A stretch of 64,000 nt of DNA from Eledone cirrhosa (taxonomy: Eukaryota), in contig OZ024742.1 of the NCBI GenBank assembly GCA_964016885.1, forward strand, positions 273,792,001 to 273,856,000. The letters are read 5' to 3'. Each line of letters begins with the position of its first letter. Within the stretch, counting starts at the first letter, position 1. The translations under genes and the position numbers were made by a program. This document shows positions 1,777 through 54,926 of the stretch, one piece after another. Under the pieces are notes generated by a model. The model worked only from the letters and a program-made list of their open reading frames with translations. It was not told where the DNA came from and ran no database searches.

Positions 1777-3761
1777 ATGGCTAATTCCCCTCTGCACGAA
1801 GCAGCTGAAAGCCTTCCTCACAAAATAACACCTCACACCGACACCACCATTGTAAATGTTACTACGTTTGCCAACACAAAAAAAAATATAAGCAGTAGCA
1901 ATATTTTAAATGTGTCTCAGGCAGACATTCATTTCCCGCCATTACCAATGACTGCAGGTGTTAAACCCTCCACCACCACCACCACCGCGACAACCACCAC
2001 CACCACCACCACCGCGACAACAGAAAAAAAAGAAGAAAAAAATAAATTAACTCGTGACGTCGAAATGAAATCAAGCAAAATGGACTCTTCCCCACCAAAG
2101 ACGACTGACGCCACCACCACCACAACTGAAAATAAAATTAATATTAACGATAGCAACAACAACAACAATGACATTATAAATCCGACCCTCAGTTTCGCCA
2201 TCGTAGCAAAACAATTCGAAGCGTTCACGGTAACTCAAGAAGATTTAGAAAATGCCAAACAAATGGTAAAGAAAGATGGGTACAGGGTCAGCCTCACCCC
2301 CCCACCTAATAAAATGGAGCATCGGCGCCTGTGCACCGTGTCGTATAGAACAATAAATGTAAAATCGCGCCGAGTGGAACGGGCATCCGAGTCCCAAATC
2401 CAAAAAGCTTTGGGACATGTGTGGGCAAGAAAAACCCACATCAGACGTGGGCAAAAGTATGGAACCGTGGATGTGTTCTTTGAAACACCAGAGGAGGCTA
2501 GAGAATACTCCATGGCCCCATTAAAAAGTGACGACCTCACACTCGTCCCAAGCTATTGTGGCCAGAGACTCGTAAAGATCAGGGTGACCCACGTTCCACC
2601 GGCCATCGAAATTCCCTGGCTAATAGCGGCTGTCCTCACCGGCATCGAAGCCAACACGAAAATAATAGCAGTAGCAAAAGAAAAGCAGGAAAACTGGTCC
2701 GGATCTGGGATGGAGCTCCTGATCCAAGCGGACCAAAAAAGCATTGAGGAGATCCCAGAGGTAATAGACCTCACTGACGGCAGCCACCTCACGGTAATTG
2801 TCGAGGGCAGAAGACCTAGGTGTGTCGTTTGTGGTGAAGGAACCCACCTAAGGGCTTTCTGCCCTCAGGCTAAAAGGTTGAGGCCACCTCTCCTACCCAC
2901 CCCAGTGACAAAACCATCAACACCACCAGTAGCAGAGATGGCAGCAACAACTGTAGCAGCAACAACAGAAGCAACTATAACAGCAACAACCCCAGCAACA
3001 GTAGCAAAACCAACACCACTACCACCACCAGCAAAACCAACACCACCACCACCCAACGCTTCAGAACTAGCACCAGCGCCTACACCATCCACCACACCAC
3101 AACCAAAACTAACGGCTGTGGAGGATTTTCCACTCCCCGGCCTATCACAACTGGAGACAGATTGTGACGACGAGGAGTGGGAAACGATATCCGGAAAAAA
3201 AAAAGAAACCAAAAAAGAAAAAATTCTCTTCCTTCCCCCTCCAAAAACAAAATACAGAGGGAAACAAATAAACTAAGAAACAAAAAAGTTAGGACAGATA
3301 TGCCACCATCCACACCAGCATCACCAACCCCATCAACCCAAACACCAACACCATCACCATCATCATCCCCAGCACCACCATCACCTACACCACAAAAGTC
3401 ACCAAAAAGCGAAACAGAAACAAACCCACAACAAACGCAAACAAAACAAAACAACCAAAACGATACACACTACACAGCATTAAATTTGAACAACAAGCAA
3501 TTATTACACTACATCCAACACAACACCAGTATCACAGAAAAAGACTACACAACAACCCCAAAATTCACACCACCTCCACACATACAAATCACTCGCATCA
3601 CACAGAAAACGTACATGACACTAAAACAAAAATTCCCCAAAGACATCGGAGACTTCCGACAAGCACTCTCCAGGAGGATTTATAAGGACATCCTTCCTGA
3701 GGAGGCCACAAGCAGTGAAAAGGATGGAAAAGCCGTCCTTCCCCTACGAGAAGTAAGGTAA
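1777..3761 (+). CDS. Tx1-like ORF1 (gag-like, CCHC knuckle), split by a -1 frameshift at an A10 run (3195-3204)
   Basis: ORF 1777-3276 has CVVCGEGTHLRAFC; ORF 3177-3761 continues with NSLPSPSK, which matches NPLDSPSK in the second copy (~13770-13795). Confidence 0.8.
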
Positions 3762-3795
3762 GTGGTCTTTCCCATCTTTTCCACTCCTTTTCAAC

Positions 3796-6700
3796 ATGAC
3801 CTCACTCAGAATAGGCAGCATAAATGCGCGTGGCTTGGGGTCGTCATGGAAGCAGGGCCACCTGCTCAACGACCTCAGGTCACTAAACATAGATGTAGTG
3901 GCCATCAGCGAGACCAGAATCTCCGAAGCACAGGCTTTCGCACCGATCTTCGGCGGCTACGATTTGTACGCATCTCCCAGCCGTCCGGGATCGGGGGGAG
4001 GAGTTGCTGTGCTTTTTCGGAGAGGTTTGGATCTTGCCATACGGGCCATCTTCCTGGACCCAGAAGGTAAGTTGGTGGTGCTGGACGTGACCAGCGGAGA
4101 CGGGCAAGCTTTCAGGTTAGTGGCCGTCTATGCCCCGACAGGAGCAGGGCGGCCTGATTTCTTCCGCCGTCTGGAGACCTTTCTTGGAACGTCCCGCTCT
4201 TTAGTGTTAGTGGGCGACTGGAACGGGATCTTAGATGCACGCTGGGATTGTGTGGGATTAGTGCATAGGGAAGGAGGGTGCAAGAGTCTCACCAACCTGC
4301 TCAGACGTTTTGAACTGTCTGACAGGTACCGAATGGATTTCCCGAATGTACCAATGTGGACTTGGACAAATCGCATAGGGTCATCCAGATCATATCTAGA
4401 TAGAGTATTTTGTAGGGAAATAGATAGGTCTAGCATAGGCTGTCCACAATTCAAGATAGTCAGCTACACGGACCACAAATTCGTGATCTGTGTGCTTGAC
4501 TTAGATAGGCTTCATAGACGAGGACCCGGCTACTGGAAGCTAAACGCGTCCTTACCAGCGCGCAAGGCCTACAGAGACCGGATTAGCGAACTAGTTAAGC
4601 GGGCGTTGACGGGGGCCATCGTCAACAACAAGTGGTGGTTTGCTCTGAAAAGAGCAATTAGAATAGCGTCCATTAGGTTTAGTAAGACTTTAGCAATAGA
4701 GAAAAATAGAGCAGAGGGAGAATTAGTTAGAAAATTAGATGAGGCGCTTAGCAAAGGCATCGCGACCGACGTACTTGCGGCGAAATTGGCCCTTGACCAA
4801 TTCTTCAATGCAAAGCACGAAGGCTGCGTTGTCAGAGCTAGGGTGCGTGCTCTCAGACACGAGGGGACGAAAGCCGTTGAATGGGCCCGAGTGGCGGAGG
4901 CGCGTCGTGGCAACAAAGCCACGATCCGGTCTTTGGTGGACCACGACGGGCGCATGCTACTCGATCCCGGGCAAATGTGTGAAGCTTTTCAGCGAAACTT
5001 CGCTCAACTGTTCGGGGGCAGTGGCGGGCCGGATCGAGGGATGGACTTTAGTGTCTACCTCGACGGACTGCCGCGGCTTTCGGCCACTGAGGCGGAGTGT
5101 TGCGAAAAGCCGATAACAACCGCTGAAGTACGGGATGCAATGACTAGTTGCACAAGGGGCAAATCGCCTGGTTTGGATGGTCTGCCCTATGAACTTTACG
5201 TACAAATGCCAAACTTGTTCGGAGGCCTCTTGGCGGACGTCTACTGCAACTGGCAACAGAACGGGAGAATTCCCAGCTCTGTGAGCCGAGGAGCGGTGGC
5301 GCTGCTGAGAAAGGATCCGAACAAGGGGGATAACATAGATAATTTTAGGCCCATAACTCTGCTAAACACAGAGTTCAAGATTTTGGCCAAGGTGCTAGCA
5401 AAGAGGTTGGCGCTTGTCGTTGTTGGTCTGGTGGGAGAGGCACAGACATGCGCCATTCCCGACAGATCCATCCACGACAACCTCCACCTCATGCGATACA
5501 TCGTAGAGAGGGTAGCTAGGGAACCTGGCACGGGTGGGTCTTTGATCAATTTAGATCAGTCGAAAGCCTTCGATAGGGTCGACCATCGTTACCTAGCGGC
5601 AGTCCTGAGGGCGGCTGGCTTTGGGCCCGTCTTCAGAGGCTGGATCGCTGCCATGCACAGCGACATCTGCTCTGTAGTGAGAGTGAACGGTCACCTTTCG
5701 GAACCGTTCAACATCATGCGCTCGGTCCGCCAAGGATGTCCCCTCTCGTCCCTATTGTACGTATTGACTCTCGAGCCATTACTGCACAAACTGGAGACGT
5801 TGAGGGGGGTCCCGCGCGAACTAGGATGCGGAAGATCCGTGTCAGCATATGCCGACGATGTCACCGTAGTGGTGTCGAACGCCAAACACATCGAGGCGAT
5901 CGCCACTACACTAAGGGAATACGAAGCGGTGACAGGAGCAATGATCAACCAGGAAAAGTCAGTGGGCCTGCAGCTCGGCACCTGGAGAGGCAGGTCCATG
6001 CCGTCCAACAGCGTCGTCGGGCGCTGGACGGACGGACCGGTTAAATTGCTAGGGGTCTGGTTCGGTCCAGACCTCCAGACGGACAAAAACTGGGACGAGG
6101 TGACGAGCAGGGTGGCTTCTCTCACCCAGAAATGGGCCGAGAGGAAGCTATCCCTAAAAGGTCGAGCGGAGGTGGCGAATGCGTACATCGCATCCGTCAT
6201 CTACTACCGCCTGACCGTCGTACCTTGTCCTAAGCCCCGCCTGACTGCGCTGGAGCGTTTGCTCTTTCGCTTCTTGTGGAAGGGACGCGCTCCGATGGTC
6301 AGGCGGTCCATCTGCTGTCAACACCCGCTACATGGAGGGCTGGGCATGCCGTGGCTGATGATGCGCAGACACGCGCTCAGGCTACGACATCTCCACCTCT
6401 TCCTCGACGGTGATCAGGTGTGGTCGCCGTTTGCAAGACACGTTTTTCCCCAGCTCGTCTCCTTGACGGAGCTGCAGTCCTGGGTCAAGCGAAGACCGAG
6501 AGGGAGCGCTTGGAGACTGGAATGTCTTCAGGCGCTCACAGCCCTCGACCAATCGGGCAATGTGATCGGTGGAAACTCCACCTTGGCGTTCTATAGGGGA
6601 TTAGTGGAGGTGAAGAGCGACGACGTACTTGGAGAAACTCTAGGCGTCGACGAAAATCAACTAGCCAATCTCTTCGGAAGGACTTTCGGGCCGGGGCCTA

Positions 6701-7215
6701 TGGACAACTTCCAGAAATCCCTCGCCTGGCAGTGCTACCGAGGAGCTTTGCCAGTTCGGAATAAACTCTACAGGCATGGAGGTGCCGTCAGCCGGGCATG
6801 TCCGAGATGCGCGCAGGGCGACGAAACCGTCCTGCACGCACTCGTCCAGTGTCCGAGCATTGCTGACTTGTGGGTTTATGTCGAACACCTGCTGTCACGT
6901 GTAGGACGGATCCAGCTATCAGCTGAGTCCATCGTGAGGATTGCCCCACCCCCTTCCTTTAGCCTGGAAGGGCAGGCAGTTTTTATCTGTCTGGTGGCCA
7001 TGGCGAAAGAGATAGTATGGTGGACACGTTTGAAAGGGCTGAAGACGAGCACTTACCTCTTCGGTGATGCCCTGATTAACTTTTTCAAATTTCATTTGAA
7101 AAGGAAAATCAGGGTAGAGAGGGAAGTGCTCTCTTCCCAGCATTTTGTTGAAAGATGGGTGAGAGAAGCACGTATGGCCCGAATGAATGGGCCTTCTCTG
7201 AGTATGTGTCTGTAA
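3796..7215 (+). CDS. Tx1-like ORF2: APE endonuclease, reverse transcriptase and C-terminal Cys/His motif, 1139 aa, uninterrupted
   Basis: APE motifs SINARG, SETR, VYAP, GDWN, LDRVF, TDH; RT motifs KSPGLDG, RPITLLN, DQSKAFD, QGCPLS, YADD; CPRC...HALVQC. Confidence 0.95.
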   Translation: MTSLRIGSINARGLGSSWKQGHLLNDLRSLNIDVVAISETRISEAQAFAPIFGGYDLYASPSRPGSGGGVAVLFRRGLDLAIRAIFLDPEGKLVVLDVTSGDGQAFRLVAVYAPTGAGRPDFFRRLETFLGTSRSLVLVGDWNGILDARWDCVGLVHREGGCKSLTNLLRRFELSDRYRMDFPNVPMWTWTNRIGSSRSYLDRVFCREIDRSSIGCPQFKIVSYTDHKFVICVLDLDRLHRRGPGYWKLNASLPARKAYRDRISELVKRALTGAIVNNKWWFALKRAIRIASIRFSKTLAIEKNRAEGELVRKLDEALSKGIATDVLAAKLALDQFFNAKHEGCVVRARVRALRHEGTKAVEWARVAEARRGNKATIRSLVDHDGRMLLDPGQMCEAFQRNFAQLFGGSGGPDRGMDFSVYLDGLPRLSATEAECCEKPITTAEVRDAMTSCTRGKSPGLDGLPYELYVQMPNLFGGLLADVYCNWQQNGRIPSSVSRGAVALLRKDPNKGDNIDNFRPITLLNTEFKILAKVLAKRLALVVVGLVGEAQTCAIPDRSIHDNLHLMRYIVERVAREPGTGGSLINLDQSKAFDRVDHRYLAAVLRAAGFGPVFRGWIAAMHSDICSVVRVNGHLSEPFNIMRSVRQGCPLSSLLYVLTLEPLLHKLETLRGVPRELGCGRSVSAYADDVTVVVSNAKHIEAIATTLREYEAVTGAMINQEKSVGLQLGTWRGRSMPSNSVVGRWTDGPVKLLGVWFGPDLQTDKNWDEVTSRVASLTQKWAERKLSLKGRAEVANAYIASVIYYRLTVVPCPKPRLTALERLLFRFLWKGRAPMVRRSICCQHPLHGGLGMPWLMMRRHALRLRHLHLFLDGDQVWSPFARHVFPQLVSLTELQSWVKRRPRGSAWRLECLQALTALDQSGNVIGGNSTLAFYRGLVEVKSDDVLGETLGVDENQLANLFGRTFGPGPMDNFQKSLAWQCYRGALPVRNKLYRHGGAVSRACPRCAQGDETVLHALVQCPSIADLWVYVEHLLSRVGRIQLSAESIVRIAPPPSFSLEGQAVFICLVAMAKEIVWWTRLKGLKTSTYLFGDALINFFKFHLKRKIRVEREVLSSQHFVERWVREARMARMNGPSLSMCL

Positions 7216-7519: not shown

Positions 7520-10500
7520 CTTGAATCTCAGTCATTGATGTTAGCTAACAGGAAAGTCCGTTGGAATGAATATCAAGCCACTACCTGCAGCCTCAGATAT
7601 TCAGGACGTATCGGAGGGTTCTTGCTGTTCCCAGCAAGCATGCCTTTTGAAGCGTTCCAAAAAGCGTGAAGGGGCCGATTTTCTTTAACCATCCCTGGAT
7701 ACCTTTGGAGATAATCCCCAGAGCGACTATGACAATCGGGATCACTTTGACTTCATGGCAGTTCCAAATCCGTTTTACCTCCCAATTTAAGTCCTGGTAT
7801 CGGTTAATTTTCTCCCTCTCCTTCTCTTGCACTCTCGTGTCGAATGGGCAGGCCACATCCACAATCAGGCACGATCTTTTTTCTTTGTCCAAAACCACCA
7901 GGTCAGGTCTATTGTGTTCCAGTTTCTTGTCCGTCTGTATCCTAAAATCCCACAGCACCTTCCCTGGTCGTTTTCTATCACCGACTCTGGCTTATGCTCA
8001 TACCACTTCTCAGAATGTGGTAAATTGTTTACTTTGCATAGGTGCCAGTGGATCACCCTGCCCATCACATCATGTCTCCAGCCCTTATATTGAGTCTGGG
8101 ATAGGTGTTTACACTCGGATACAATGTGAGTCACAGTCTCCTCTCTCTCTCCACAGATCCTGCACAGTGGGCTAGCCTCCTCCTTGTAAATGTGGTGTTT
8201 CAACCACTTCGTTTTGAGGGCCTGCTCCTGCGCAGCCATTAACATTCCTTCTGTAGCCTTTTTGAGGTCTCCTCTTTTCAACCAGTTCCATGTCTGTGGA
8301 TCTCTAAATTCAGTTTTCTCAAAGAAGGTACTATGAAGAGATTTTTCCTGAAGGCTGCTCTTTCTCCTTGATGTTATTTCCTCCTTGGACATCCCCTGGC
8401 CTATTGTCCCCTCCTTCAGTACAGCACTGAGCATTGGCTCCTTACTATCAGTCACGTATTTGTGTAGGTTGTTTTTCTCCATCTGAACACAGTCCTCTAT
8501 GCTGATAAGACCTCTTCCACCCTCAGATCTCCTTAGGTAGAGTCTATCGACATCACTCCTCTTGTGGAACATGTTGTAGATAGTCAATAGCTTCCTAGTC
8601 TTCCTATCCATTTCTTTTTGTTTAGCAACATTCCATCTCAGAATTCCTGCACTGTACCTAATAATAGACACAGCTCGGGAATTTACTGCGGTTATGGCAT
8701 TTCTGCTGTTCAGATGTGACTTCAATACGCTCCATACTCTCCAAAGGTATTCAGTTCTTAACAATTCCTTCATTTTTTTGTTCTTTCTGCCATCAGCCTC
8801 CAGAACGCCCAAATACTTGTATCCTTCCTCAGAGTCAATTTCCTTTATCATCTCACCTGTTGGTATCTGGATTCCGTTACTTCTGCTCAACCTACCTCTC
8901 CTCATCACAATGACTCCACACTTACTATTACCAAACTGCATACATATATCACTGCTGAAAATACGGACAGTGTCAACAAGCACATCCAACTCCTTCTCAC
9001 TCTTCCCGAAGAGCTTAAGATCGTCCATGAAGAGGTGGTGATTGATGGTAAGCTCACCCTTTCCCAACTTGTATCCTGCTCTCACTTTTCGCAGCATAAT
9101 GGTCAGGGGCATCAGGGCAAGGACAAAGAACAGAGGGGACAGGCTATCTCCCTGGAAGATACCTCTCTTGATCTTCGCGCTTCCCAAGGATTCTCCAGTT
9201 GATGTCAACTCTGTTTTCCAGGACCTCATACTCCTGCCCAGCAACTGTCTGATGTTATCTGCCACCTTGACGATCTCCAGGCTTTTGGTGATCCAAGAAT
9301 GAGGCACCATGTCAAATGCCTTTCTGTAGTCTATCCATCCCATGGCAAGATCAGTGTGTCTCCTCCTGCAATTCCCCATTACCATCTTATCAATAAGTAA
9401 CTGGTCCTTTGTACCACGTGACTTCTTTCGGCATCCTTTCTGTTCGTCCGGTAACAAGTTGTTTGTGTGGAGGTGATGGTTGATTTCCTCAGACACAATG
9501 CTCGTCAACAGTTTCCACATTACGGACAGACATGTGATAGGTCTATAGTTGGTAACATCATTACCCTTGATTCGGTCTTTCATTATCAGAACTGTGGTAC
9601 CTTTTGTCAACCACTCTGGTACCTCACCTGACATCAAGCAGTCATTGAACATGGTTGTCAGTTTCGGGTGGAGGGATGTTAAATTTTTAATCCAATACCC
9701 CTGCACACCATCTGGGCCTGGTGATTTCCAGTTGGTTAGTATTTTGGCCTGCCCCTTAAGAGTTTCAACTGTGATACTCAAATCAGTTTGTTGGTGTGCC
9801 TGCTCACCGATCTCCCTCTGTACTGTCTCAATCCACCCTGCCTGGTCATTATGTTTAACATCCTGCTCCCATATTCCTCTCCAGAATGTTTTAGTTTGTT
9901 CCGCCTCAGGGATCAAGTCGTTGCCTCTTTCGTTCCCCTCAAGCTGTCCAAACAGCATCTTCTGGTTGTTGTCGAACATGCGGTTCTGTTTATACTGACT
10001 GACTCTGTTCTCGTATAGTCTGATTTTTGCAGTATTTGCTACAATGCGTTGCTTTAGTTCCTCTATGATAATATTTAGCTTTTTCCTCCTAGTTTTGTAA
10101 TTTATTTCCAGTCTATTTTTAGTGCCTATGTTTTTTAGTGTCCCATTCAGTAGTGACTCAAGCTTTCCAATGTCATTTCTCATTTCCCTGATTTGACCAC
10201 TCAGTCGTTTCTTCCACCAAGGCTCTGCTCTTTCTTGTCTGTTGTTTCCTCTTGATTTTATACCAAGTAGTTTCCTCACCGTATTAGCTGTTGCTTTGAG
10301 GATATTGTTGCACTGGTGAAGGATCCTCGCCTCAAGGTATGGGATGACTTTGTTTACCTTAGCTATTGTTTCTTTTAACTTTTTCCTGTCTACAAATCTT
10401 AGGTTCATATGTCTCCCACTATCATTGTTCAATTCATCTACCACTAAATTTAGGATGTAAATCTAATCTTGTCCTAGCCCGTCAGCATTCATCTCCTCAG

Positions 10501-16349: not shown

Positions 16350-16400
<51 letters not shown>

Positions 16401-16458
16401 CCCCGAACATTTTAGTTTCACTGTTCCTTATACGTATATATATATATATATCTATATA

Positions 16459-16495
<37 letters not shown>

Positions 16496-17239
16496 GTATA
16501 AGGAACAGTGGAACTAAAATGTTCAGAGTTATTATAATTTGCTTCGAATAAAGTCAAATATTTAAGAACAGTGTGGGGCGTGACGTTAATGAAACATTTT
16601 GCTATTTCATTATTGTATTTTCGCACCTCGATATTTAACTGTTTAAATAAGCAATTGAATCGTCACAGAGAAATATCTGAGATCGTTTGCATAGGTTTTA
16701 AGGATCGAAGGAAAAACACTCTGAATCGATTACATTTCATAGCTCTTTGTCAATATAAGTATGGTCATGAGATTAAATATATGATATACGTGTGATTAAT
16801 GTATTTTTTTGTATCACGTTTTATTAAGGAAATGTATTATCAAACACCACAACTGAAGTAAATATGAATGTTTTAATGCGTTGCTCTTTTATATATATAG
16901 AACAAAATTTAAACGATCCATAAATAAACACAATACTTTCAATTCTTTCAGCAAATAGAATGATACACCGCATTTATTTCAAATTAGTAGTGATCACTAC
17001 CCAAATTATATTGATACCGAATGTTATATGATGCCTTGTCGATTTCGTTTTCCATATTCTTGTAAAAATCAGGGTATTTTAACATCATCCCATTCTCTTC
17101 TCCTTTCCATCTATTTGTCTCCCTTTCTCTCTATATATATTATAAACACACACACACACTTAAACACTCACACATACACACACACATGCACACACTCACA
17201 CAGGCACACACACACACACAGACACACAGACACACAGAC

Positions 17240-18180: not shown

Positions 18181-19575
<1,395 letters not shown>

Positions 19576-19602
19576 ATAGAGGTGTAACACACGAGTTGTG
19601 AT

Positions 19603-20185
19603 ATATTAGTAAAAGGAAAAGAAAATGCTGACAGATTGTTCCCAGTGAAAAATAGTATAATTAGGTATAAGTATAAATTAGTAATAAGTATTGGTTAGTA
19701 TTCAGTTTTAGTTTTAAGTTTTTACCGGTTGCGCATTTCTAATGCTTTTCAAAAATAGTTTTGAGATAGAGCGCCCATGATGTTTGCTCTAATCTGATCA
19801 GTTTTGGAAATTCTACCTGTTTTATGTGAAAATAGTGGCTCCAGAGGTATTAAGATTTGGTTGGTTGTTGAATGTCACGTGAATGAGTACTATAAGTTTC
19901 GCGCCAATTCGTGTTGCAAAAATTCTTGTAGTCAAAACAATTTTGATTGGTCGGTAGAGGTCACGTGAATGTTAAAAATTGATTTTGCGCCAAATGTAGG
20001 TTTATCGAAGAGTGTCCTTTTTCGCCTGATTGAGAAATCACTGAAAAATAAGTCTTTTAAGACAAATATGTGTGTGTGTATGTGTATAGTAAAGAGATTC
20101 ATTGTTGTGATAATGGTCAGTAGGGATGTGTGTGTGAATTGCAATCATGTTGAAAGGTCAACAGTTCAGGTGCCCAGTATGACAA

Positions 20186-20261
<76 letters not shown>

Positions 20262-22344
20262 CAGAGTAATTCGTGGTAGAGGGATCGGTCAGTAGGAATG
20301 TGTCTGTACGTGTGTGGGGGTATTTTAACATGTTGACAGATATTTTTCAGCTCTTGTCTTATACGGAGAAGTGCGTGCGTGTGTGTGTGTGTGTGTGTAT
20401 GTCTTTTTGTATATTAGTGTACGCGTGTGTATGTGTGTGTGTATATGTGGGTCTGTGTGTATATGTGTGTATGCGTGTGTGTGTGTGGCTGGACCAGTAT
20501 TTTTGTGATACTGGTAAAAATGGTGTACATTATTCGATATTTTCAGCAAAAACGATTCTCTCAAGAGAACATCAAAAACATTAATAATAAAAGAGGTGAA
20601 ATGATATATAGTATTGTCATAACACCAAGGTGTGTGTGAGTGTCCAGATTGTACGTACTGCAAGGGGAATCCATTAGGCCCTGTCGTATGGGAATACTTG
20701 TGTACAAATATGTATGTGCCCATCAGTTTGCAATGCATGTGTGCGTATATGTATGTGTGTGTGTCGGCACGTTTATATCTATAGACATGAAAAGGTATGC
20801 AAATTTGTGTATATTTGTGTTGCACCATAGAACATGTGTTTACGTATGTCATTGGGTTTATATGTGGATAGAGATGTATGTATGATGTATGCTGATGTAG
20901 GTATGTATGTTGACGTGTGTATGTTGTGGGTTCGTCTTAGGGAGAAGTGTTTAGACGGGGTCCGTATTTGTTAATAAAGTGAGATTCCTTGCTGATGCAC
21001 TGGGTGTGGGTGGCATTATCTTTAAATTTATAGAGGGGAAAGATTCTAAAGTTGGGATGATTTGGGGCGGCACAGGTATCAATGTGTTCACTCAGTAGTA
21101 TTTTCCTGTATTCCCGCATTTTAATTTGGGATCTATGGACAGTCATGCGTTGGCGGAAGCTCTCTTTGGTCTGGCCTATGTATTGTTCTCGACAACCTGA
21201 GCAAGTTAATACATATATTAGATTTTCTGATGCGTATGTGAAATTGTGTTTTACTATAAAACGTTGTCCTTCTTTGAAATAGAATTCCGAACCCTCTATT
21301 AGGTTGATGCATATGCCACAGTTGGGTCTATCGCATTTTTTTACTGTGGGTTTCGTTGTTGTGCTTTGGCATGTGTTAGGATGTTTTTAATTGACTTAGA
21401 TTGTCTTTTGCTCTTTATGATATCGTGTGTTCGAAGGATTTGGTTCATTCTATGGTCCTTTTTTAACACAGGGATGTTCTGGAGGATGGTGTCAAAGGCC
21501 TCAGTGTTGAGGGTGTTGTATGTGGAGATGTATGGAAGAGCTTTTAGTTTCGGTTGATTTACTTTAGGGTGTCTAAGGTCCTGGCTACTGAGTTTTAGGG
21601 CACGTTGGATTCCATTGTCAATTAGTGATGCAGGGTAGTCCCTGCCTATGAGTGTGTCCTTTAGTTCTTGTAGCCGTAAGTAACAGGTGTTTTTATTGGA
21701 GACTATAGTACATATTATTTTGGCTAAGTTGTAGGGAATATTAATTTTAACGTGTCTAGGGTGGCAAGAGTTGAAAGGAAGATATTACTTGGAATCTGTG
21801 GGCTTGTAGTATATGTCTGTTTCTCTTTTTTTTTATGAATCTTAATGAGGATGTCGAGGAAGGGGAGTTGTTGATGGCTATATTCCATCGTAAAGTTAAT
21901 ATTCGTGTTGAGCCCATTTATAAGGGTGTGAAATTATTTAAGTTTCTCGATGAAGCAGTCATCTAGACACTCACACACACCTTGGTGTAATGACAATACT
22001 ATATATCATTTCACCCCTTTTATTATTAATGTTTTTGATGTTCTCTTTTGAGAATCGTTTTTGCTGAAAATATTGAATAATGTACACCATGTGTTACCAG
22101 TATCACACAAATACTGGTCCACCCACAAACACACACACACAGACACATACAGACATATACACACAGACACACATATACACACACACATACACACGCGTAC
22201 ACTAACATACAAAGAGACATACACACACACACACTTCTCCGTATAAGACAAGAGCTGAAAAATATCTTTCAACATGTTAAAATAACCCACATACACGTAC
22301 AGACACATTCTTACTGACCGATCCCTCTACCGTAAATTACTATG

Positions 22345-22412
<68 letters not shown>

Positions 22413-23000
22413 TTGTCTTAATAGGCACCTGAACTGTTGACCTTTCAACATGACTGCAATTCACACACACATCCTTACTGACCATTATCACAACAAAGAA
22501 CCTCTTTACTACACACACACACACATACACACATACATATTTGTCATAAAGACTTATTTTTCAGTGACTTCTCAATCAGGCGAAAAAGGACACTCTTCGA
22601 CAAACCTACATTTGGCGCAAAATCAATTTTTAACATTCACGTGACCTCTACCGACCAATCAAAATTGTTTTGACTACAAGAATTTTTGCAACACGAAATG
22701 GCGCGAAACTTATAGTACTCATTCACGTGACATTCAACAACCAACCAAATCTTAATACCTCTGGAGCCACTTTTTTCATATAAAACAGGTAGAATTTCCA
22801 AAACTAATCAGATTAGAGCAAACATCACGAGCGCTCTATCTCAAAATTATTTTTGAAAAGCATTAGAAATGCGCAACCGGTAAAAACTTAAGACTAAAAC
22901 TGAATACTAACCAATACTTATTACTAATTTATACTTATACCTAATTATACTATTTTTCACTGGGAACAATTTGTCAGCATTTTCTTTTCCTTTTACTAAT
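19603..23000 (-). mobile_element. Penelope-like element: pLTR, truncated RT/GIY-YIG region and inverted pLTR
   Basis: ~1.04-kb inverted repeat (19603-20649 vs 21961-23000); 20937-21960 (-) encodes NLIYVLTCSGCREQYIGQT..RQRMTVHRSQI. Confidence 0.88.
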
Positions 23001-23057
23001 ATATATATATATATATACGTATTTATGTATGTATATGTATATATATATATATATATA

Positions 23058-23097
<40 letters not shown>

Positions 23098-23250
23098 ATA
23101 AATGCTCTGAAATAGCGATATATATGTGAATATAGACATAGAATATTCGAAAATATTCTGTATGTTTATAATAAACATTTTGAAGACCTAATCGCTATAG
23201 AATAGAATACGTCACGTATTACAATTAGATTCTCGATAAAAGCAAGGGAA

Positions 23251-23293
23251 GTAATCTACGCGTTTCATTCTTGTTAGAAATCATCAGGACTAC
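23251..23293 (-). ncRNA. Minimal type I hammerhead ribozyme (first of 10 in the left arm, every 310 bp)
   Basis: Reverse complement reads GTAGTC CTGATGA TTTCTAACAAGAAT GAAA CGCG TA GATTAC. Confidence 0.88.
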
Positions 23294-26200
23294 ATATCCA
23301 GTGCTTTTATCGAGAATGACACAGCTAGAGACTTATAGAATACTTAGCTGTGTACAGGAACTGGTTTGAAAGAGCGGTTGCCGGTCCGGCAGAAATTAGA
23401 AATTGGAATAAATGCTCTGAAATAGCGATATATATGTGAATATAGACATAGAATATTCGAAAATATTCTGTATGTTTATAATAAACATTTTGAAGACCTA
23501 ATCGCTATAGAATAGAATACGTCACGTATTACAATTAGATTCTCGATAAAAGCAAGGGAAGTAATCTACGCGTTTCATTCTTGTTAGAAATCATCAGGAC
23601 TACATATCCAGTGCTTTTATCGAGAATGACACAGCTAGAGACTTATAGAATACTTAGCTGTGTACAGGAACTGGTTTGAAAGAGCGGTTGCCGGTCCGGC
23701 AGAAATTAGAAATTGGAATAAATGCTCTGAAATAGCGATATATATGTGAATATAGACATAGAATATTCGAAAATATTCTGTATGTTTATAATAAACATTT
23801 TGAAGACCTAATCGCTATAGAATAGAATACGTCACATATTACAATTAGATTCTCGATAAAAGCAAGGGAAGTAATCTACGCGTTTCATTCTTGTTAGAAA
23901 TCATCAGGACTACATATCCAGTGCTTTTATCGAGAATGACACAGCTAGAGACTTATAGAATACTTAGCTGTGTACAGGAACTGGTTTGAAAGAGCGGTTG
24001 CCGGTCCGGCAGAAATTAGAAATTGGAATAAATGCTCTGAAATAGCGATATATATGTGAATATAGACATAGAATATTCGAAAATATTCTGTATGTTTATA
24101 ATAAACATTTTGAAGACCTAATCGCTATAGAATAGAATACGTCACGTATTACAATTAGATTCTCGATAAAAGCAAGGGAAGTAATCTACGCGTTTCATTC
24201 TTGTTAGAAATCATCAGGACTACATATCCAGTGCTTTTATCGAGAATGACACAGCTAGAGACTTATAGAATACTTAGCTGTGTACAGGAACTGGTTTGAA
24301 AGAGCGGTTGCCGGTCCGGCAGAAATTAGAAATTGGAATAAATGCTCTGAAATAGCGATATATATGTGAATATAGACATAGAATATTCGAAAATATTCTG
24401 TATGTTTATAATAAACATTTTGAAGACCTAATCGCTATAGAATAGAATACGTCACGTATTACAATTAGATTCTCGATAAAAGCAAGGGAAGTAATCTACG
24501 CGTTTCATTCTTGTTAGAAATCATCAGGACTACATATCCAGTGCTTTTATCGAGAATGACACAGCTAGAGACTTATAGAATACTTAGCTGTGTACAGGAA
24601 CTGGTTTGAAAGAGCGGTTGCCGGTCCGGCAGAAATTAGAAATTGGAATAAATGCTCTGAAATAGCGATATATATGTGAATATAGACATAGAATATTCGA
24701 AAATATTCTGTATGTTTATAATAAACATTTTGAAGACCTAATCGCTATAGAATAGAATACGTCACGTATTACAATTAGATTCTCGATAAAAGCAAGGGAA
24801 GTAATCTACGCGTTTCATTCTTGTTAGAAATCATCAGGACTACATATCCAGTGCTTTTATCGAGAATGACACAGCTAGAGACTTATAGAATACTTAGCTG
24901 TGTACAGGAAGTGGTTTGAAAGAGCGGTTGCCGGTCCGGCAGAAATTAGAAATTGGAATAAATGCTCTGAAATAGCGATATATATGTGAATATAGACATA
25001 GAATATTCGAAAATATTCTGTATGTTTATAATAAACATTTTGAAGACCTAATCGCTATAGAATAGAATACGTCACGTATTACAATTAGATTCTCGATAAA
25101 AGCAAGGGAAGTAATCTACGCGTTTCATTCTTGTTAGAAATCATCAGGACTACATATCCAGTGCTTTTATCGAGAATGACACAGCTAGAGACTTATAGAA
25201 TACTTAGCTGTGTACAGGAACTGGTTTGAAAGAGCGGTTGCCGGTCCGGCAGAAATTAGAAATTGGAATAAATGCTCTGAAATAGCGATATATATGTGAA
25301 TATAGACATAGAATATTCGAAAATATTCTGTATGTTTATAATAAACATTTTGAAGACCTAATCGCTATAGAATAGAATACGTCACGTATTACAATTAGAT
25401 TCTCGATAAAAGCAAGGGAAGTAATCTACGCGTTTCATTCTTGTTAGAAATCATCAGGACTACATATCCAGTGCTTTTATCGAGAATGACACAGCTAGAG
25501 ACTTATAGAATACTTAGCTGTGTACAGGAACTGGTTTGAAAGAGCGGTTGCCGGTCCGGCAGAAATTAGAAATTGGAATAAATGCTCTGAAATAGCGATA
25601 TATATGTGAATATAGACATAGAATATTCGAAAATATTCTGTATGTTTATAATAAACATTTTGAAGACCTAATCGCTATAGAATAGAATACGTCACGTATT
25701 ACAATTAGATTCTCGATAAAAGCAAGGGAAGTAATCTACGCGTTTCATTCTTGTTAGAAATCATCAGGACTACATATCCAGTGCTTTTATCGAGAATGAC
25801 ACAGCTAGAGACTTATAGAATACTTAGCTGTGTACAGGAACTGGTTTGAAAGAGCGGTTGCCGGTCCGGCAGAAATTAGAAATTGGAATAAATGCTCTGA
25901 AATAGCGATATATATGTGAATATAGACATAGAATATTCGAAAATATTCTGTATGTTTATAATAAACATTTTGAAGACCTAATCGCTATAGAATAGAATAC
26001 GTCACGTATTACAATTAGATTCTCGATAAAAGCAAGGGAAGTAATCTACGCGTTTCATTCTTGTTAGAAATCATCAGGACTACATATCCAGTGCTTTTAT
26101 CGAGAATGACACAGCTAGAGACTTATAGAATACTTAGCTGTGTACAGGAACTGGTTTGAAAGAGCGGTTGCCGGTCCGGCAGAAATTAGAAATTGGAATA

Positions 26201-26681
26201 AATGCTCTGAAATAGCGATATATATGTGAATATAGACATAGAATATTCGAAAATATTCTGTATGTTTATAATAAACATTTTGAAGACCTAATCGCTATAG
26301 AATAGAATACGTCACGTATTACAATTTCTAACAAGAATGAAACGCGTAGAATCGCTATAGAATAGAATACGTCACGTATTACAATTTCTAACAAGAATGA
26401 AACGCGTAGATTACTTCCCTTGCTTTTATCGAGAATCTAATTGTAATACGTGACGTATTCTATTCTATAGCGATTAGGTCTTCAAAATGTTTATTATAAA
26501 CATACAGAATATTTTCGAATATTCTATGTCTATATTCACATATATATCGCTATTTCAGAGCATTTATTCCAATTTCTAATTTCTGCCGGACCGGCAACCG
26601 CTCTTTCAAACCAGTTCCTGTACACAGCTAAGTATTCTATAAGTCTCTAGCTGTGTCATTCTCGATAAAAGCACTGGATAT

Positions 26682-26724
26682 GTAGTCCTGATGATTTCTA
26701 ACAAGAATGAAACGCGTAGATTAC
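26682..26724 (+). ncRNA. Minimal type I hammerhead ribozyme (first of 9 complete copies in the right arm)
   Basis: Stem I GTAGTC/GATTAC, core CTGATGA 26688-94, stem II TTCT/AGAA, GAAA, palindromic stem III CGCG, GUA cleavage after 26718. Enclosed by a 16-bp perfect helix, 26658-73 with 26731-46. Confidence 0.9.
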
Positions 26725-29326
26725 TTCCCTTGCTTTTATCGAGAATCTAATTGTAATACGTGACGTATTCTATTCTATAGCGATTAGGTCTTCAAAATGT
26801 TTATTATAAACATACAGAATATTTTCGAATATTCTATGTCTATATTCACATATATATCGCTATTTCAGAGCATTTATTCCAATTTCTAATTTCTGCCGGA
26901 CCGGCAACCGCTCTTTCAAACCAGTTCCTGTACACAGCTAAGTATTCTATAAGTCTCTAGCTGTGTCATTCTCGATAAAAGCACTGGATATGTAGTCCTG
27001 ATGATTTCTAACAAGAATGAAACGCGTAGATTACTTCCCTTGCTTTTATCGAGAATCTAATTGTAATACGTGACGTATTCTATTCTATAGCGATTAGGTC
27101 TTCAAAATGTTTATTATAAACATACAGAATATTTTCGAATATTCTATGTCTATATTCACATATATATCGCTATTTCAGAGCATTTATTCCAATTTCTAAT
27201 TTCTGCCGGACCGGCAACCGCTCTTTCAAACCAGTTCCTGTACACAGCTAAGTATTCTATAAGTCTCTAGCTGTGTCATTCTCGATAAAAGCACTGGATA
27301 TGTAGTCCTGATGATTTCTAACAAGAATGAAACGCGTAGATTACTTCCCTTGCTTTTATCGAGAATCTAATTGTAATACGTGACGTATTCTATTCTATAG
27401 CGATTAGGTCTTCAAAATGTTTATTATAAACATACAGAATATTTTCGAATATTCTATGTCTATATTCACATATATATCGCTATTTCAGAGCATTTATTCC
27501 AATTTCTAATTTCTGCCGGACCGGCAACCGCTCTTTCAAACCACTTCCTGTACACAGCTAAGTATTCTATAAGTCTCTAGCTGTGTCATTCTCGATAAAA
27601 GCACTGGATATGTAGTCCTGATGATTTCTAACAAGAATGAAACGCGTAGATTACTTCCCTTGCTTTTATCGAGAATCTAATTGTAATACGTGACGTATTC
27701 TATTCTATAGCGATTAGGTCTTCAAAATGTTTATTATAAACATACAGAATATTTTCGAATATTCTATGTCTATATTCACATATATATCGCTATTTCAGAG
27801 CATTTATTCCAATTTCTAATTTCTGCCGGACCGGCAACCGCTCTTTCAAACCAGTTCCTGTACACAGCTAAGTATTCTATAAGTCTCTAGCTGTGTCATT
27901 CTCGATAAAAGCACTGGATATGTAGTCCTGATGATTTCTAACAAGAATGAAACGCGTAGATTACTTCCCTTGCTTTTATCGAGAATCTAATTGTAATACG
28001 TGACGTATTCTATTCTATAGCGATTAGGTCTTCAAAATGTTTATTATAAACATACAGAATATTTTCGAATATTCTATGTCTATATTCACATATATATCGC
28101 TATTTCAGAGCATTTATTCCAATTTCTAATTTCTGCCGGACCGGCAACCGCTCTTTCAAACCAGTTCCTGTACACAGCTAAGTATTCTATAAGTCTCTAG
28201 CTGTGTCATTCTCGATAAAAGCACTGGATATGTAGTCCTGATGATTTCTAACAAGAATGAAACGCGTAGATTACTTCCCTTGCTTTTATCGAGAATCTAA
28301 TTGTAATACGTGACGTATTCTATTCTATAGCGATTAGGTCTTCAAAATGTTTATTATAAACATACAGAATATTTTCGAATATTCTATGTCTATATTCACA
28401 TATATATCGCTATTTCAGAGCATTTATTCCAATTTCTAATTTCTGCCGGACCGGCAACCGCTCTTTCAAACCAGTTCCTGTACACAGCTAAGTATTCTAT
28501 AAGTCTCTAGCTGTGTCATTCTCGATAAAAGCACTGGATATGTAGTCCTGATGATTTCTAACAAGAATGAAACGCGTAGATTACTTCCCTTGCTTTTATC
28601 GAGAATCTAATTGTAATACGTGACGTATTCTATTCTATAGCGATTAGGTCTTCAAAATGTTTATTATAAACATACAGAATATTTTCGAATATTCTATGTC
28701 TATATTCACATATATATCGCTATTTCAGAGCATTTATTCCAATTTCTAATTTCTGCCGGACCGGCAACCGCTCTTTCAAACCAGTTCCTGTACACAGCTA
28801 AGTATTCTATAAGTCTCTAGCTGTGTCATTCTCGATAAAAGCACTGGATATGTAGTCCTGATGATTTCTAACAAGAATGAAACGCGTAGATTACTTCCCT
28901 TGCTTTTATCGAGAATCTAATTGTAATACGTGACGTATTCTATTCTATAGCGATTAGGTCTTCAAAATGTTTATTATAAACATACAGAATATTTTCGAAT
29001 ATTCTATGTCTATATTCACATATATATCGCTATTTCAGAGCATTTATTCCAATTTCTAATTTCTGCCGGACCGGCAACCGCTCTTTCAAACCAGTTCCTG
29101 TACACAGCTAAGTATTCTATAAGTCTCTAGCTGTGTCATTCTCGATAAAAGCACTGGATATGTAGTCCTGATGATTTCTAACAAGAATGAAACGCGTAGA
29201 TTACTTCCCTTGCTTTTATCGAGAATCTAATTGTAATACGTGACGTATTCTATTCTATAGCGATTAGGTCTTCAAAATGTTTATTATAAACATACAGAAT
29301 ATTTTCGAATATTCTATGTCTATATT

Positions 29327-29367
<41 letters not shown>

Positions 29368-29371
<4 letters not shown>

Positions 29372-30084: not shown

Positions 30085-30227
30085 TAGAAGTTGTAACACA
30101 ACAGTTAGATCACCATACCGAGAACACTTGTTTCACTTTCTTAGCGGATCTTCAGCTCGTACTTCTACCAAACTCGTCCCATCGACTGAGTACTCTACCA
30201 TTACGGATATTACCTTCCAGTGTTCTA

Positions 30228-31498: not shown

Positions 31499-33570
<2,072 letters not shown>

Positions 33571-33572
33571 CG

Positions 33573-33769
33573 TGAAGAATAACATGGCCAACAGTATAAA
33601 CAAGGACGTTTATTTACAGTCTAACAATTGTTTCTATGATAGAGTTGTCTAAACACTGAAGGCAGTGGCACTCAGTGTTTAGCAATTTTTAGACAACTCT
33701 ATCATAGAAACAATTGTTAGACTGTAAATAAATGTCCTTGTTTGTACTGTTGACCATGTGATTCTTCAC
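33573..33769. repeat. Foldback with ~80-bp arms and an inner 11-bp hairpin
   Basis: GTGAAGAATAACATGG...GTTGTCTAAA pairs with TTTAGACAAC...CCATGTGATTCTTCAC. Confidence 0.9.
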
Positions 33770-52748: not shown

Positions 52749-54926
52749 TCTATATATATAAAACTGACGATGTCTGTCTGTGTGTGAGTGAGTTTGAATC
52801 CCTAAACTACGAGAAGCACCCAACCGATTGTTTTCAAACTTTACACATGAAATACTTGTTTCAGGGAGTTTTCTGAGCAAAGAAACTTTCAAATGCTCAA
52901 TGCCCTAGGGACCGCATTAGGCGAATTAGCGATCTCTCTCTATAATTCTTATTCTTTCTCTTTTTAGATAGATACATACATATAATGTCGCGCCCTTATA
53001 ATATATGTCTGTATGTCTGGATATCTGATGTCTCCGGTTATCCTGCCACCCTTGCTCAAGACAAATCTCACACTCATTCCCCCAAAAGTTGGTAAGTGCA
53101 CACAACTTCTTACTCACGTTTTAAGCAACGGTGTTGCTTACTTACGTACCACCAGAATCTTACTTCTTTGCCAGCCGTGGTTGTGGCAATACTAAGCTTA
53201 GCTAAGACGGTTATATATTTTACACAACACTAACATGAAAGCCGGTAACTATTTATTAGTCAGTCTCTTCATACCGTGAGCAAAGGAAATATAACTTTTA
53301 GTGGAGCGAGTGAAATAAAGTCGAACCTGCTGCGATTCAAAAATCGGGTTTGCAGGTTATATATTTCACACAACACTAAAAATTAAAGCCGGTAAAGAAA
53401 AACATCGCTATAATAGCTTCAGGTTTCACAGTGTTGCTTACTTACGTGCCTTTACGAGAACGAAAGTTACTATTTACCGTTTAGTATTGTAGAAAATCTC
53501 TCTCTATATATTTTTTCGTTTTGATTTTATATTTGTATGCGAATTATGGATGTCTGTCTGTGTATGTGTGTGTGAGTTTGAATCCCTAAAACTCGAGAAT
53601 CTCCCAACCGACTGTTTCCAAACTTTACACATGAAATACACTAAAGGCACCCTGCTATTGTACAGCTCGCGGTTCACCTTCAGAATGGTCAAAGGGTCTA
53701 CTTCACCGACACTAATGCTGCCCAAATGGGGGCGGACCCACAAGAAACAAGCCTCACTGGATTTTTGAAACTGTGTCGGACCGATTCTTTTGCACAGTCT
53801 CTGCTTTAACCCCAGGTGCCGTCCTACTACACATGGAATAAGCAACAATGGGTGCGCAGAAAGGCAGCTCAACCTGTTGAAGGACATCCCGGCATAAAGT
53901 TTGACAGTTGCCTTGGAAGGTTTTACACTATGCACCCCAACCAGCACGAGTGGGGAAAGATTGGGGTCCTCTTACCTCAAGCAGCAGAAGGCGAAGGTAG
54001 AAACCTTCGCCTTCTGCTGCTTGAGGTAAGAGGACCCCAATCTTTTCACGAACTCCGAACTTTTGACGGCTGTGTGTGCAGCACTTACAGGGAAGCTTGT
54101 TTCAAGCGTGGCCTGCTGGAAGACGTTGCGCAGTGGGAAGCGACTTTGTTCGAAGCCGTTGTATCTCAATCACCTATGCGCTTACGAGCTCTATTTGCAG
54201 TAATGCTGAAAACTTGCAAACTAAGCAATCCTATGGTTTTGTGGCTCCAGTTCGAAGAAGAATTATCCGAGGACTACAAGCGCCGGGCGCAACTGCAATA
54301 CCCTCATATGGAACGAACCAGCGGTGAGGTCTTCAATTGTGCTTTGATTGACATTGAGGACAGAGTTGCATCACTCGATGGAAATTATTTGCCGTCATAG
54401 GGTCTGCCCCAAGCGCTCCGTAACAAGTCAAACGTACTTCCTACAGCTCTTCTTTGGGAAACATCCTACGACGTCAATGACCTTGTCAAGTGCGTCCGTG
54501 AAACTAAATCACAACTTCTTCCGGATCAAATTAGTGTTTACACCATTGTTTCTGACCATGTGCGCCAACGAAAAGGAGGTATGTTCTTTCTGGATGCTCC
54601 TGGATGGACGGGCAAAATATTGGTGTTACGCCTCTGCTTTCGGGCGACTTCAGGCAGACCCTCCCTGTAATTCCCAAAGGTACACGAGCTGACGAGGTCC
54701 AAGCATGTCTGAAGTCATCTCCACTATGGCGCCATGTCAGGAAACTCACTCTTACAACCAACATGAGGCAAAGAACTCAATCAAAGTCACTATTATGGGC
54801 TACAAGTGAACGTTCACATGGCCATTTTTAGGGCCACTACTTGAAATTGTTGATGGTTACCCCTCCTTACTGGGGTGTCAGTGAACGGCGTAGAGCACGC
54901 CAATTGTAGCCGGACGGGACAATTAG
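52749..54926 (+). mobile_element. Internally deleted Helitron (Rep/PIF1-helicase remnants)
   Basis: 5' TCTATATATATAAAA; LRLLLLEVRGPQSFHELRT..TYREAC, FFLDAPG, LSGDFRQTLPVIPKG; 3' short GC-rich stem then TTAGT. 52770-52855 is duplicated at 53549-53640. Confidence 0.85.

Follow-up and report, generated by a model that had tools for sequence, protein, structure and literature searches.

How did two opposed arrays of short repeats, each unit bearing a predicted hammerhead ribozyme, come to be joined head to head within a (TA)n tract of the Eledone cirrhosa genome? The locus was analyzed within a 64,000-nucleotide stretch of contig OZ024742.1 (the window), and its layout was compared with that of 107 loci outside the window, all from one contig. 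The left, or “long-end,” arm (23092 to 26326, minus strand) consists of 10.4 units of 310 bp with 10 hammerheads and extends from unit position 165 at its outer end to unit position 31 at its inner end, position 1 being the first base 3' of the predicted cut. The right, or “short-end,” arm (26384 to 29337, plus strand) consists of 9.5 units with 9 hammerheads, and its outer end is unit position 139, within an internal (AT)4 (unit positions 132 to 139). A 26-nt “tail” (unit positions 140 to 165; 23092 to 23117, minus strand) is present on the left end only. Both array ends lie in (TA)n, at 22999 to 23093 on the left, where the tract doubles as the end of a neighboring PLE, and at 29330 to 29368 on the right. 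The unit has a GC content of about 34% and no protein content: the longest stop-free frame is 59 aa, the longest ATG-started frame is 30 aa, there is no RT plus GIY-YIG ORF, and no LTR layout was seen in the array. An earlier, sequence-only reading of this locus had proposed 10 left-facing and 9 right-facing hammerheads, (TA)n at both ends, and a unit without an ORF, all of which agrees with these data; the unequal ends (165 and 139), the direction-switching center, and a U10.1-U11.1 mismatch in the hammerhead are additions to it.

The center of the array is more complex than a simple inversion. In the head-to-head junction (26290 to 26410), the antisense arm, which reaches unit position 31, is followed by 27 nt in sense orientation (286 to 2), 37 nt in antisense orientation (67 to 31), and then the right arm. 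Because of these three direction switches, 60 bp are duplicated; the junction shows microhomologies of 1 to 3 nt and is unique in the genome. Across the whole array there are only three substitutions (23836, 24911, and 27544). Two of these are the same one-unit variant at unit position 206; counted inward from the outer ends, it lies in unit six of both the left arm (24911, minus strand) and the right arm (27544, plus strand) and is thus mirrored in outer-end register. Overall, the two arms are mirror images at 2,939 of 2,940 positions, the variant included, around a loop of ~250 nt. Formation of ~3 kb of double-stranded RNA by read-through, suggested earlier, is geometrically possible.

A type I hammerhead core is found in 19 of 19 full units. 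In the domain at 26658 to 26746 (plus strand), a 16-bp outer helix, in which 16 of 16 pairs are Watson-Crick, a 6-bp stem I, and a 4-bp stem II surround a core (26688 to 26718) of the form CUGAUGA-stem II-GAAA-ACGCGU-A, with residues C3, U4, G5, A6, G8, A9, G12, A13, A14, A15.1, U16.1, and H17 all present. The sequence-only reading was accurate in calling the cores complete, in placing the predicted cut at the GUA, after 26718, and in describing the 16-bp helix, but the stem III palindrome is the 6-nt ACGCGT rather than CGCG. The window haplotype has a U-U mismatch at 10.1/11.1, the base of stem II, that is replaced by A-U in 18 of 89 loci; it weakens stem II and was counted against ribozyme activity of the predicted hammerhead. 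Such a U-U is a known tolerated hammerhead variant (PMC3088659). The Rfam scan proposed earlier gave a weak answer: over the whole window no hammerhead matched at an E value of ≤1, only TA-repeat noise being returned, and a 351-nt part matched HH9 with 19.2 bits (E = 0.029), below the gathering cutoff of 52.

The predicted folds and the substitution patterns count in favor of constraint on the RNA structure. The unit folds with a z score of −4.38, and the unconstrained lowest-energy fold of the dimer is a double hammerhead, with a predicted stem III pair probability of 0.89 to 0.98, versus 0.0 in the monomer. None of the 26 array-wide substitutions touches the core. In the helices, pairing is kept by 7 of 7 array-wide substitutions versus 3 of 23 one-unit changes (P = 6e-5), a comparison that is confounded because A>G changes, which keep pairing by wobble, make up 5 of the 7; A>G accounts for 9 of 26 array-wide versus 15 of 135 one-unit changes when polarity is read against the window's unit (P = 0.005). 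Across 11 units of related families, compensatory changes occur in 25 of 57 pairs; positions 3/8 are U-A in 6 units, C-G in 2, U-G in 2, and C-A in 1. Furthermore, a structured domain is conserved at unit positions 59 to 145, closed by an invariant helix (AUAGCG/CGCUAU). Together with the tail to unit position 165, it spans 26777 to 26883 (plus strand) and contains both fixed ends described below; a borrowed reverse transcriptase likely binds here.

Coral, mussel, and axolotl have metazoan non-LTR retrozymes with units of this kind (Cervera and de la Peña 2020, PMC7229834): tandem, noncoding, 150 to 450 bp long, with a GC content under 50% and one type I hammerhead each. The closest hammerhead among them is HHR_Amex2, which also has a U-U at the helix II base and works better as a dimer. 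Cleavage and circles were demonstrated there, whereas the family described here is known from genomic sequence; conversely, the inverted two-armed layout, the fixed start sites, and the (TA)n target are not described in the passages and Discussion consulted. The authors proposed that tandem cDNA is made from the circle, with PLEs as a strong candidate for the machinery (PMC7229834). More recently, vertebrate retrozymes were interpreted as non-autonomous PLE derivatives (Li, Clavereau, and Pollet, bioRxiv 10.64898/2026.07.22.740005). The class and the proposed PLE partner are the same as here, but that case was built on co-occurrence and pLTR homology, with arrays put down to local amplification, whereas the case for the present family comes from the footprint of its insertions, and searches turned up no pLTR homologous to it. 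The strings “palindrom,” “orientation,” and “head-to” do not occur in the main text of that preprint; 8 of 9 Xenopus retrozyme dimers tested there showed no in vitro cleavage, which also weighs against activity of the predicted hammerhead here.

The young non-LTR retrozyme family to which this locus belongs has more than 1,000 insertions in the genome. A pattern search of the genome yielded 4,584 exact cores, versus 0 for a reversed control. The same search located 1,067 long ends at unit position 165 (control, 0) and 1,255 short ends, 534 at position 139 and 721 at position 130 (controls, 0), a dispersal characteristic of retrozymes. An opposite arm is carried by 75 of 80 loci chosen by the 165 end alone, and in 72 of 73 complete loci the short end falls at unit positions 127 to 139 and is followed by (TA)n; the long ends had been selected for TA directly after them. 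Tails are 26 nt (165 versus 139) or 35 nt (165 versus 130) long. A further 19 loci, picked by the short end in the absence of an exact 165 match and hence biased to single arms, comprise 8 single-armed and 10 two-armed loci plus one 11-nt stub, so fewer than 94% of loci have two arms. Sequence uniformity within arrays is 99.95%, with 129 one-unit substitutions in 268,697 bases. Mapping of other loci, as the sequence-only reading advised, thus establishes the two-armed layout as the family norm, and its view that the family is young holds up. Array sizes at other loci reach 27 to 30 units, and periodic variants in two long arrays, L035b and L072, suggest later local duplication.

The variants within these loci carry information on the template. 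Both arms share the same non-reference haplotype in 57 of 60 informative loci, where chance would give about 0.15; arms are discordant at L059 and L094. Of the 26 array-wide substitutions, 11 occur at a single locus each and yet fill that locus's units. Arm lengths are nearly independent (rho = 0.29). Inner ends lie within 5 nt of the cut in 4 of 168 cases, versus 5.4 expected; they ignore the cut site, and copying therefore runs through it. A cDNA stop at the cleavage site was rejected on the same count. A pileup of inner ends at unit positions 13 to 38 (27 of 168; P = 0.0008) was recognized post hoc and is given no weight. At simple junctions, those without an insert (59 of 79), the overlap averages 2.3 nt, compared with 0.75 nt in simulation. 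The shared haplotypes, the private array-filling variants, and the cut-blind inner ends favor rolling copying of a monomer circle. Mirrored heterogeneity, however, is unexpected under two independent copies of such a circle; it is seen at this locus, at L068 (again in outer-end register), and at L086, where the haplotype switches after two units in both arms. Family-wide, 2 one-unit variants are mirrored in register and 61 are not. For the mirrored one-unit variant in the window, a monomer circle is a poorer fit than foldback or a multimeric template. The route first suggested, in which reverse transcription rolls around a 310-nt circle, remains the best reading we can infer for the family, but this variant calls for more than a monomer circle.

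A candidate for the enzyme type adjoins the array. A 5'-truncated Neptune-type PLE (19571 to 22999, minus strand), a member of a young family, encodes a GIY-YIG domain with a CxxxxCxxC linker (20937 to 21386), has an inverted copy (21961 to 22999), and bears a ~31-nt tail on one end. The resemblance to the neighboring PLE noted in the sequence-only reading is real, and it is one of layout only, there being no sequence homology between the 310-bp unit and this PLE. The hallmarks of PLE insertions are an inverted 5'-truncated copy, a 30- to 40-bp tail, and a (TA)n bias (PMC8557442). A PLE protein, when purified and assayed in vitro, cuts the target on both strands and extends each of them, and two internal RT start sites delimit the tail (PMC11167929). 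The retrozyme family shares with EN+ PLEs (Neptune, Naiad, and Poseidon, PMC8557442; PAc in vitro, PMC11167929) the inverted 5'-truncated copy (here at the 75 loci above), the one-sided tail, the (TA)n target (at 72 of 73 short ends), tandem copies, and two internal start sites, and the offset of 26 to 35 nt between its fixed ends matches the PLE tail. It differs in having neither RT nor GIY-YIG, in its 310-bp unit repeated over many laps, in the exact tail length, and in the extended stem I of its hammerhead, compared with the minimal pLTR motif of EN+ PLEs. Another parallel is provided by MRC1 and other non-autonomous Chlamys elements of Chlamydomonas, which are likewise multicopy head-to-tail elements using PLE machinery; those elements, however, share 3' sequence with known autonomous partners, and most Chlamys lack canonical hammerheads (PMC8557442). 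The genome-wide recurrence of two arms and two fixed ends strengthens the earlier argument that the layout supports PLE mobilization.

Searches for a partner returned retrozymes only. Neither the unit, compared by blastn with the window and the other loci retrieved, nor an HMM of 11 related units matched anything else, GIY-YIG searches gave no autonomous PLE with an end homologous to the unit, and a tail-motif scan behind 88 endonuclease-reaching matches found no PLE partner. Homology to the terminal repeat was found in 0 of 70 PLE-bearing loci and 0 of these 88 matches, a small sample of PLE families. Intact Neptune ORFs of 784 aa do occur in this genome. At loci L225 and L237, an older related retrozyme is directly joined to a truncated Neptune, which we treat as a lead because it is old and has atypical ends.

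The locus is a two-armed insertion of a young, noncoding 310-bp hammerhead retrozyme into (TA)n, with two fixed ends, and a borrowed PLE RT-endonuclease, probably of the Neptune type, likely made it. Multimeric transcripts would cut themselves through double hammerheads, and the products would be ligated into 310-nt circles. The PLE protein would bind the conserved domain (unit positions 59 to 165), cut both strands of the (TA)n tract, and use internal start sites at 165 and 130/139 to begin synthesis from both 3' ends; such initiation would not need an RNA 3' end, so a circle could serve as template. Each cDNA would roll around the common template for a number of laps independent of the other arm, and a head-to-head joint between the two cDNAs would form through microhomologies of 1 to 5 nt. 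A multimeric template or arm-from-arm copying likely accounts for a minority of insertions, this one probably among them. The fuller version, twin-primed rolling-circle retrotransposition in which a dimeric PLE enzyme uses both strands of the (TA)n break to extend two tandem cDNAs outward from one small circular RNA, with A-to-I edits, for which unit positions 20, 259, and 276 are candidates, becoming haplotypes, is put forward tentatively, at slightly less than an even chance.

The same twin priming could have acted mostly on a multimer, linear or a large circle, that was transcribed from a source array and left uncleaved. With the two starts in one unit, both arms would copy one RNA in outer-end register, which accounts for the mirrored variants at this locus, L068, and L086, as well as for the independent arm lengths and shared haplotypes; inner ends indifferent to the cut site are likewise expected, and uncleaved RNA is the dominant substrate in the in vitro PLE system (PMC11167929). 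We nevertheless consider this template unlikely as the general one: it requires a one-unit bottleneck for the 11 private variants that fill arrays and a regrowth route to the longest arrays, it sits poorly with the excess of unmirrored variants, and no one-unit variant is common to loci at the same index in the 89-locus table, inspected by eye. Foldback, in which one cDNA made on RNA folds back and DNA synthesis on that cDNA yields the second arm, fits the window locus fully, from its mirrored positions and variant to its loop, and also fits L086. Across the family it is improbable, and in its pure form it was rejected on arm lengths: in 30 of 73 loci the long-end arm is too short to have served as template for the short-end arm, and in the other 43 the short-end arm is shorter, so neither arm is always primary. 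Foldback also explains the two fixed start sites less simply than the in vitro PLE result does. Satellite growth at each site, with a lone PLE terminal repeat expanding through unequal crossing-over as modeled in bioRxiv 10.64898/2026.07.22.740005, would suit the periodic variants of L035b and L072 but is very improbable, given the haplotypes shared by oppositely oriented arms, the fixed ends, the uniformity of the arrays, and the finding that 0 of 80 layout-table loci adjoin a PLE ORF remnant with this tail.

Twin priming yields 5' inversions, and LINE ORFs occur in the window; even so, an L1-style origin through a LINE or other reverse transcriptase is barely credible, as a poly(A) tail is absent, the second start lies 26 to 35 nt from the first, so that both arms cover the same sequence, and the tail and (TA)n target match PLEs, the adjacent young Neptune family included. 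Hardly more credible is the idea that sequencing or assembly created the palindrome by foldback. The junction of this locus is unbridged by contigs, run X2 having no cover at 26331 to 26347 and run X1 a mean depth of only 1.64 in the bin at 26333 to 26369. Against an artefact, the flanks differ, the mirror gives out 26 nt before the array does, precisely where the family has a fixed end, the two-armed layout is found again across the 80-locus sample with varied junctions, and run X1 contigs contain 13 further antisense-to-sense joints. The unit was also found in sequencing runs labeled as 17 organisms, no RNA run being listed among them; the other-organism contig sets X4, X5, X8, X10, and X17 hold one contig of 331 to 340 nt each, with a depth of 10 to 34 and 0 to 1 differences, and a raw-read run of another organism gave 0 reads with the unit in about 1% of the run. 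Cross talk from a high-copy-number repeat is likelier than horizontal transfer.

The class and the PLE hypothesis are already published, and the insertion footprint is the new part: it was not found described in the main texts searched. According to a review, metazoan retrozymes show no motif revealing their helper element (PMC7761336), and the origin of tandem and inverted PLE insertions has been called undefined (PMC8557442). The family provides over 1,000 near-identical natural insertions of a 310-nt RNA with two fixed starts and haplotype markers, so that computation and the in vitro PLE assay already in print can directly test circle against multimer and twin priming against foldback. Should the circle model be true, circular RNA becomes genomic DNA at (TA)n through a PLE enzyme, with a bearing on the birth of satellites and on viroid-like RNAs; if the twin-primed rolling-circle reading also holds, one account would cover both the tandem arrays of retrozymes and the tandem, inverted, and tailed structure of PLEs.

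The array at window positions 23092-29337 was resolved by Tandem Repeats Finder into a left arm of 10.4 units (23092-26326) and a right arm of 9.5 units (26384-29337), with a 60-bp duplication at its center and (TA)n on either side. Ten complete hammerhead cores lie on the minus strand and nine on the plus strand, and the longest frame of the 310-bp unit is at most 59 codons. Thus, the tandem array with two divergent arms, 10 + 9 hammerheads, (TA)n ends and no ORF described in the sequence-only reading is borne out. Both arms together carry 3 substitutions. Numbered from the first base after the predicted hammerhead cut (26719 = 1), the outer ends fall at unit positions 165 (left, long-end arm) and 139 (right, short-end arm), and the center runs antisense to 31, sense from 286 to 2, antisense from 67 to 31 and sense again from 286. 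This joint is unique to the locus genome-wide (both matches are the locus itself), and none of the contigs of public runs compared with the locus spans it; contigs of one run (X1) contain 13 other antisense-to-sense joints. In a comparison of window positions 26100-26900 with public runs, the unit was also found nearly unchanged in runs labeled as 17 organisms and, in the five contig sets examined, forms a single cyclic contig at a depth of 10-34; its presence in runs of other organisms is probably cross-talk.

Genome-wide, there are 4,584 copies of the exact 32-nt core and 0 of the reversed control. Unit ends that abut TA were counted 1,067 times at position 165, 534 times at 139 and 721 times at 130. 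The layout was described from the first 100 165-ends in the match list, every one of them on contig C1; 6 had been sampled before, 1 lay within another stretch, and the first 80 of the other 93 were used. An opposite arm was present in 75 of the 80, the remainder being single-armed (3) or unreadable to the end (2), and in 72 of 73 complete loci the short end falls at 127-139 and borders (TA)n. Among 19 short-end loci chosen for the absence of an exact 165 match, 10 were two-armed, 1 carried an 11-nt stub and 8 were single-armed, so the 94% two-armed share should be read as an upper bound. Across 89 loci, 129 one-unit substitutions were counted in 268,697 bases; the family is therefore very young, as had been proposed. 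One insertion, L034 (1956-4782), is not in (TA)n; its flanks carry an 11-bp direct repeat, and its ends are at 166 and about 126. On every sequence feature tested, the locus is a member of the non-LTR retrozyme kind, with predicted ribozyme activity.

All core positions of the hammerhead are present, and the Rfam scan proposed as a check gave weak support. Stem II begins with a U-U mismatch, a variant reported to be tolerated (PMC3088659) and likewise found in the axolotl HHR_Amex2 (PMC7229834). Folding of the unit is more stable than that of shuffled sequences (z -4.38). Stem III has a pair probability of 0.0 in the monomer; when two hammerheads in one RNA are folded without constraints, they form a double hammerhead whose 6-bp ACGCGU duplex has a pair probability of 0.89-0.98. 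PMC4209133 describes this arrangement. The hammerhead is a predicted self-cleaving ribozyme. None of 26 array-wide substitutions falls in the core and all 7 in helices keep pairing, compared with one-unit changes, of which 3 keep pairing, 18 break it and 2 hit the core (P=6e-5); this contrast may reflect either selection or editing of the RNA, given the A>G excess described below.

Older sister families with ∼320-bp units (820 forward end matches; 20 loci retrieved, L127-L146) share the two ends and the palindromic layout (e.g., L129:7500-7740 and L139:309-549). The architecture is retained in them: across 11 related units, 25 of 57 consensus pairs show compensatory change and core positions 3/8 are U-A in 6, U-G in 2, C-G in 2 and C-A in 1, counts that are not independent events because the units are related to one another. 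Many ∼320-bp copies have a U3-A8 core. A third related family (L217-L236), of about 341 bp, has the stem III palindrome ATGCAT and 285 exact motif matches. Upstream of the hammerhead, a hairpin loop, ATTCTATAAG (window 26637-26646, unit positions 228-237), and CCGGCAACCGCTCT (26589-26604, 180-195) are conserved across related families and may serve as a TATA-like promoter or as an RNA loop to which a protein binds. Further hammerhead-like motifs lie in the window at 30155, 49771, 55007 and 57069, and also at 31239, 37444, 42193, 48111, 51381 and 60182; four belong to a single family whose stem III is ACAATTGT or a variant of it, and several are close to TA tracts. Unrelated hammerhead tandem arrays with units of 484 bp and 466 bp were found at L045:3683-6231 and L085:1185-6886.

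Rolling copying of a 310-nt circle, as originally proposed, is the preferred reading for most insertions and probably does not extend to the window locus. The 89 loci carry 28 haplotypes. Of the 60 informative loci, 57 have one and the same non-reference haplotype in both arms (chance, about 0.15), and 11 of the 26 array-wide substitutions each belong to a single locus. That a variant can occupy as many as 24 units of a young array suggests a single-unit template. At 30 of 73 loci, copying from the long-end arm cannot account for the short-end arm; arm lengths are weakly correlated (rho 0.29), and 61 one-unit variants have no mirror in the other arm. Of 168 inner ends, 4 are within 5 nt of the cut (5.4 expected). 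At the 59 of 79 joints that are simple, without an insert, microhomology averages 2.3 nt, compared with 0.75 in simulation. Conversely, one variant occupies the sixth unit from each outer end at the window locus (24911 and 27544), another the outermost unit of both arms in L068, and in L086 the haplotype switches after two units in both arms, all of which is against a pure monomer circle; in L035b a third variant is common to both arms, out of register, and within L059, as within L094, the two arms differ. On balance, a circle is the likelier template in most insertions; in others, probably including the window locus, the template was multimeric or one arm was copied from the other. Foreign inserts of 272 nt (L037:3099-3371, matching none of the other retrieved stretches) and 54 nt (L096) separate the arms at two loci.

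Cephalopods have high RNA editing. In the RNA sense, A>G accounts for 9 of 26 array-wide substitutions and for 15 of 135 one-unit changes (P=0.005). Seven of the 9 fall at positions with a pair probability of 1.0, and two of the changes, A276G and A259G, each occur on more than one background. This excess, the paired sites and the recurrence suggest A-to-I editing of the template RNA, and such editing would in turn favor an RNA intermediate that is folded; the reading is no more than suggestive, because substitution polarity was taken relative to the window's unit.

Insertions of Penelope-like elements (PLEs) often include an inverted 5'-truncated copy and a one-sided tail of 30-40 bp, and some clades favor (TA)n targets (PMC8557442). 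A purified Poseidon PLE protein cleaves both target strands, extends them, and starts at two internal RNA sites that delimit the tail (PMC11167929). The two fixed ends of the retrozyme, 26 or 35 nt apart, fit such two-start-site action; they fall within and next to the lineage's most conserved region, a domain with an invariant AUAGCG/CGCUAU closing helix. The inverted layout is, as claimed, common to a neighboring PLE (19571-22999), which has an inverted copy plus a tail of ∼31 nt and is assigned to Neptune by the CxxxxCxxC linker before GIY-YIG, a motif described in PMC8557442. Its family is young (many identical endonuclease matches), has 784-aa frames with RT and GIY-YIG, and makes two-armed insertions too. 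No sequence homology was found between this neighbor and the 310-bp unit, and no autonomous partner for the retrozyme was identified among the PLE sequences compared in the genome. An old two-armed copy of the 341-bp family is fused to a 5'-truncated Neptune, without a TA tract between (L237, reverse strand 2237-4950), possibly a template switch that would name a partner; its ends are atypical. A two-armed insertion on contig C2 (L207-L209, G000:C2:359514700-359535800) repeats a 3.87-kb tandem unit that combines Neptune pieces with a TA tract and a motif resembling a hammerhead. The window also contains short near-perfect palindromes (16392-16536, 31666-31795, 33572-33769, 53956-54045, 59522-59615 and 60017-60445), two centered on (TA)n, and LINE-type reverse transcriptase frames (3757-7215, 7865-10462 and 18420-19484), one with an endonuclease domain.

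A 2020 study had already put forward tandem cDNA made from a circle, with PLEs as the helper (PMC7229834), and a review states that metazoan retrozymes offer no motif by which their helper element could be recognized (PMC7761336). A 2026 preprint (bioRxiv 10.64898/2026.07.22.740005) backs a PLE origin of retrozymes by co-occurrence and homology and ascribes arrays to local amplification; "palindrom," "orientation" and "head-to" do not occur in the text consulted. In the literature searched, subscription journals and supplements aside, no paper was found on two-armed retrozyme insertions with PLE tails. The retrozyme class itself is already known; the new feature here is the insertion footprint of the retrozyme.
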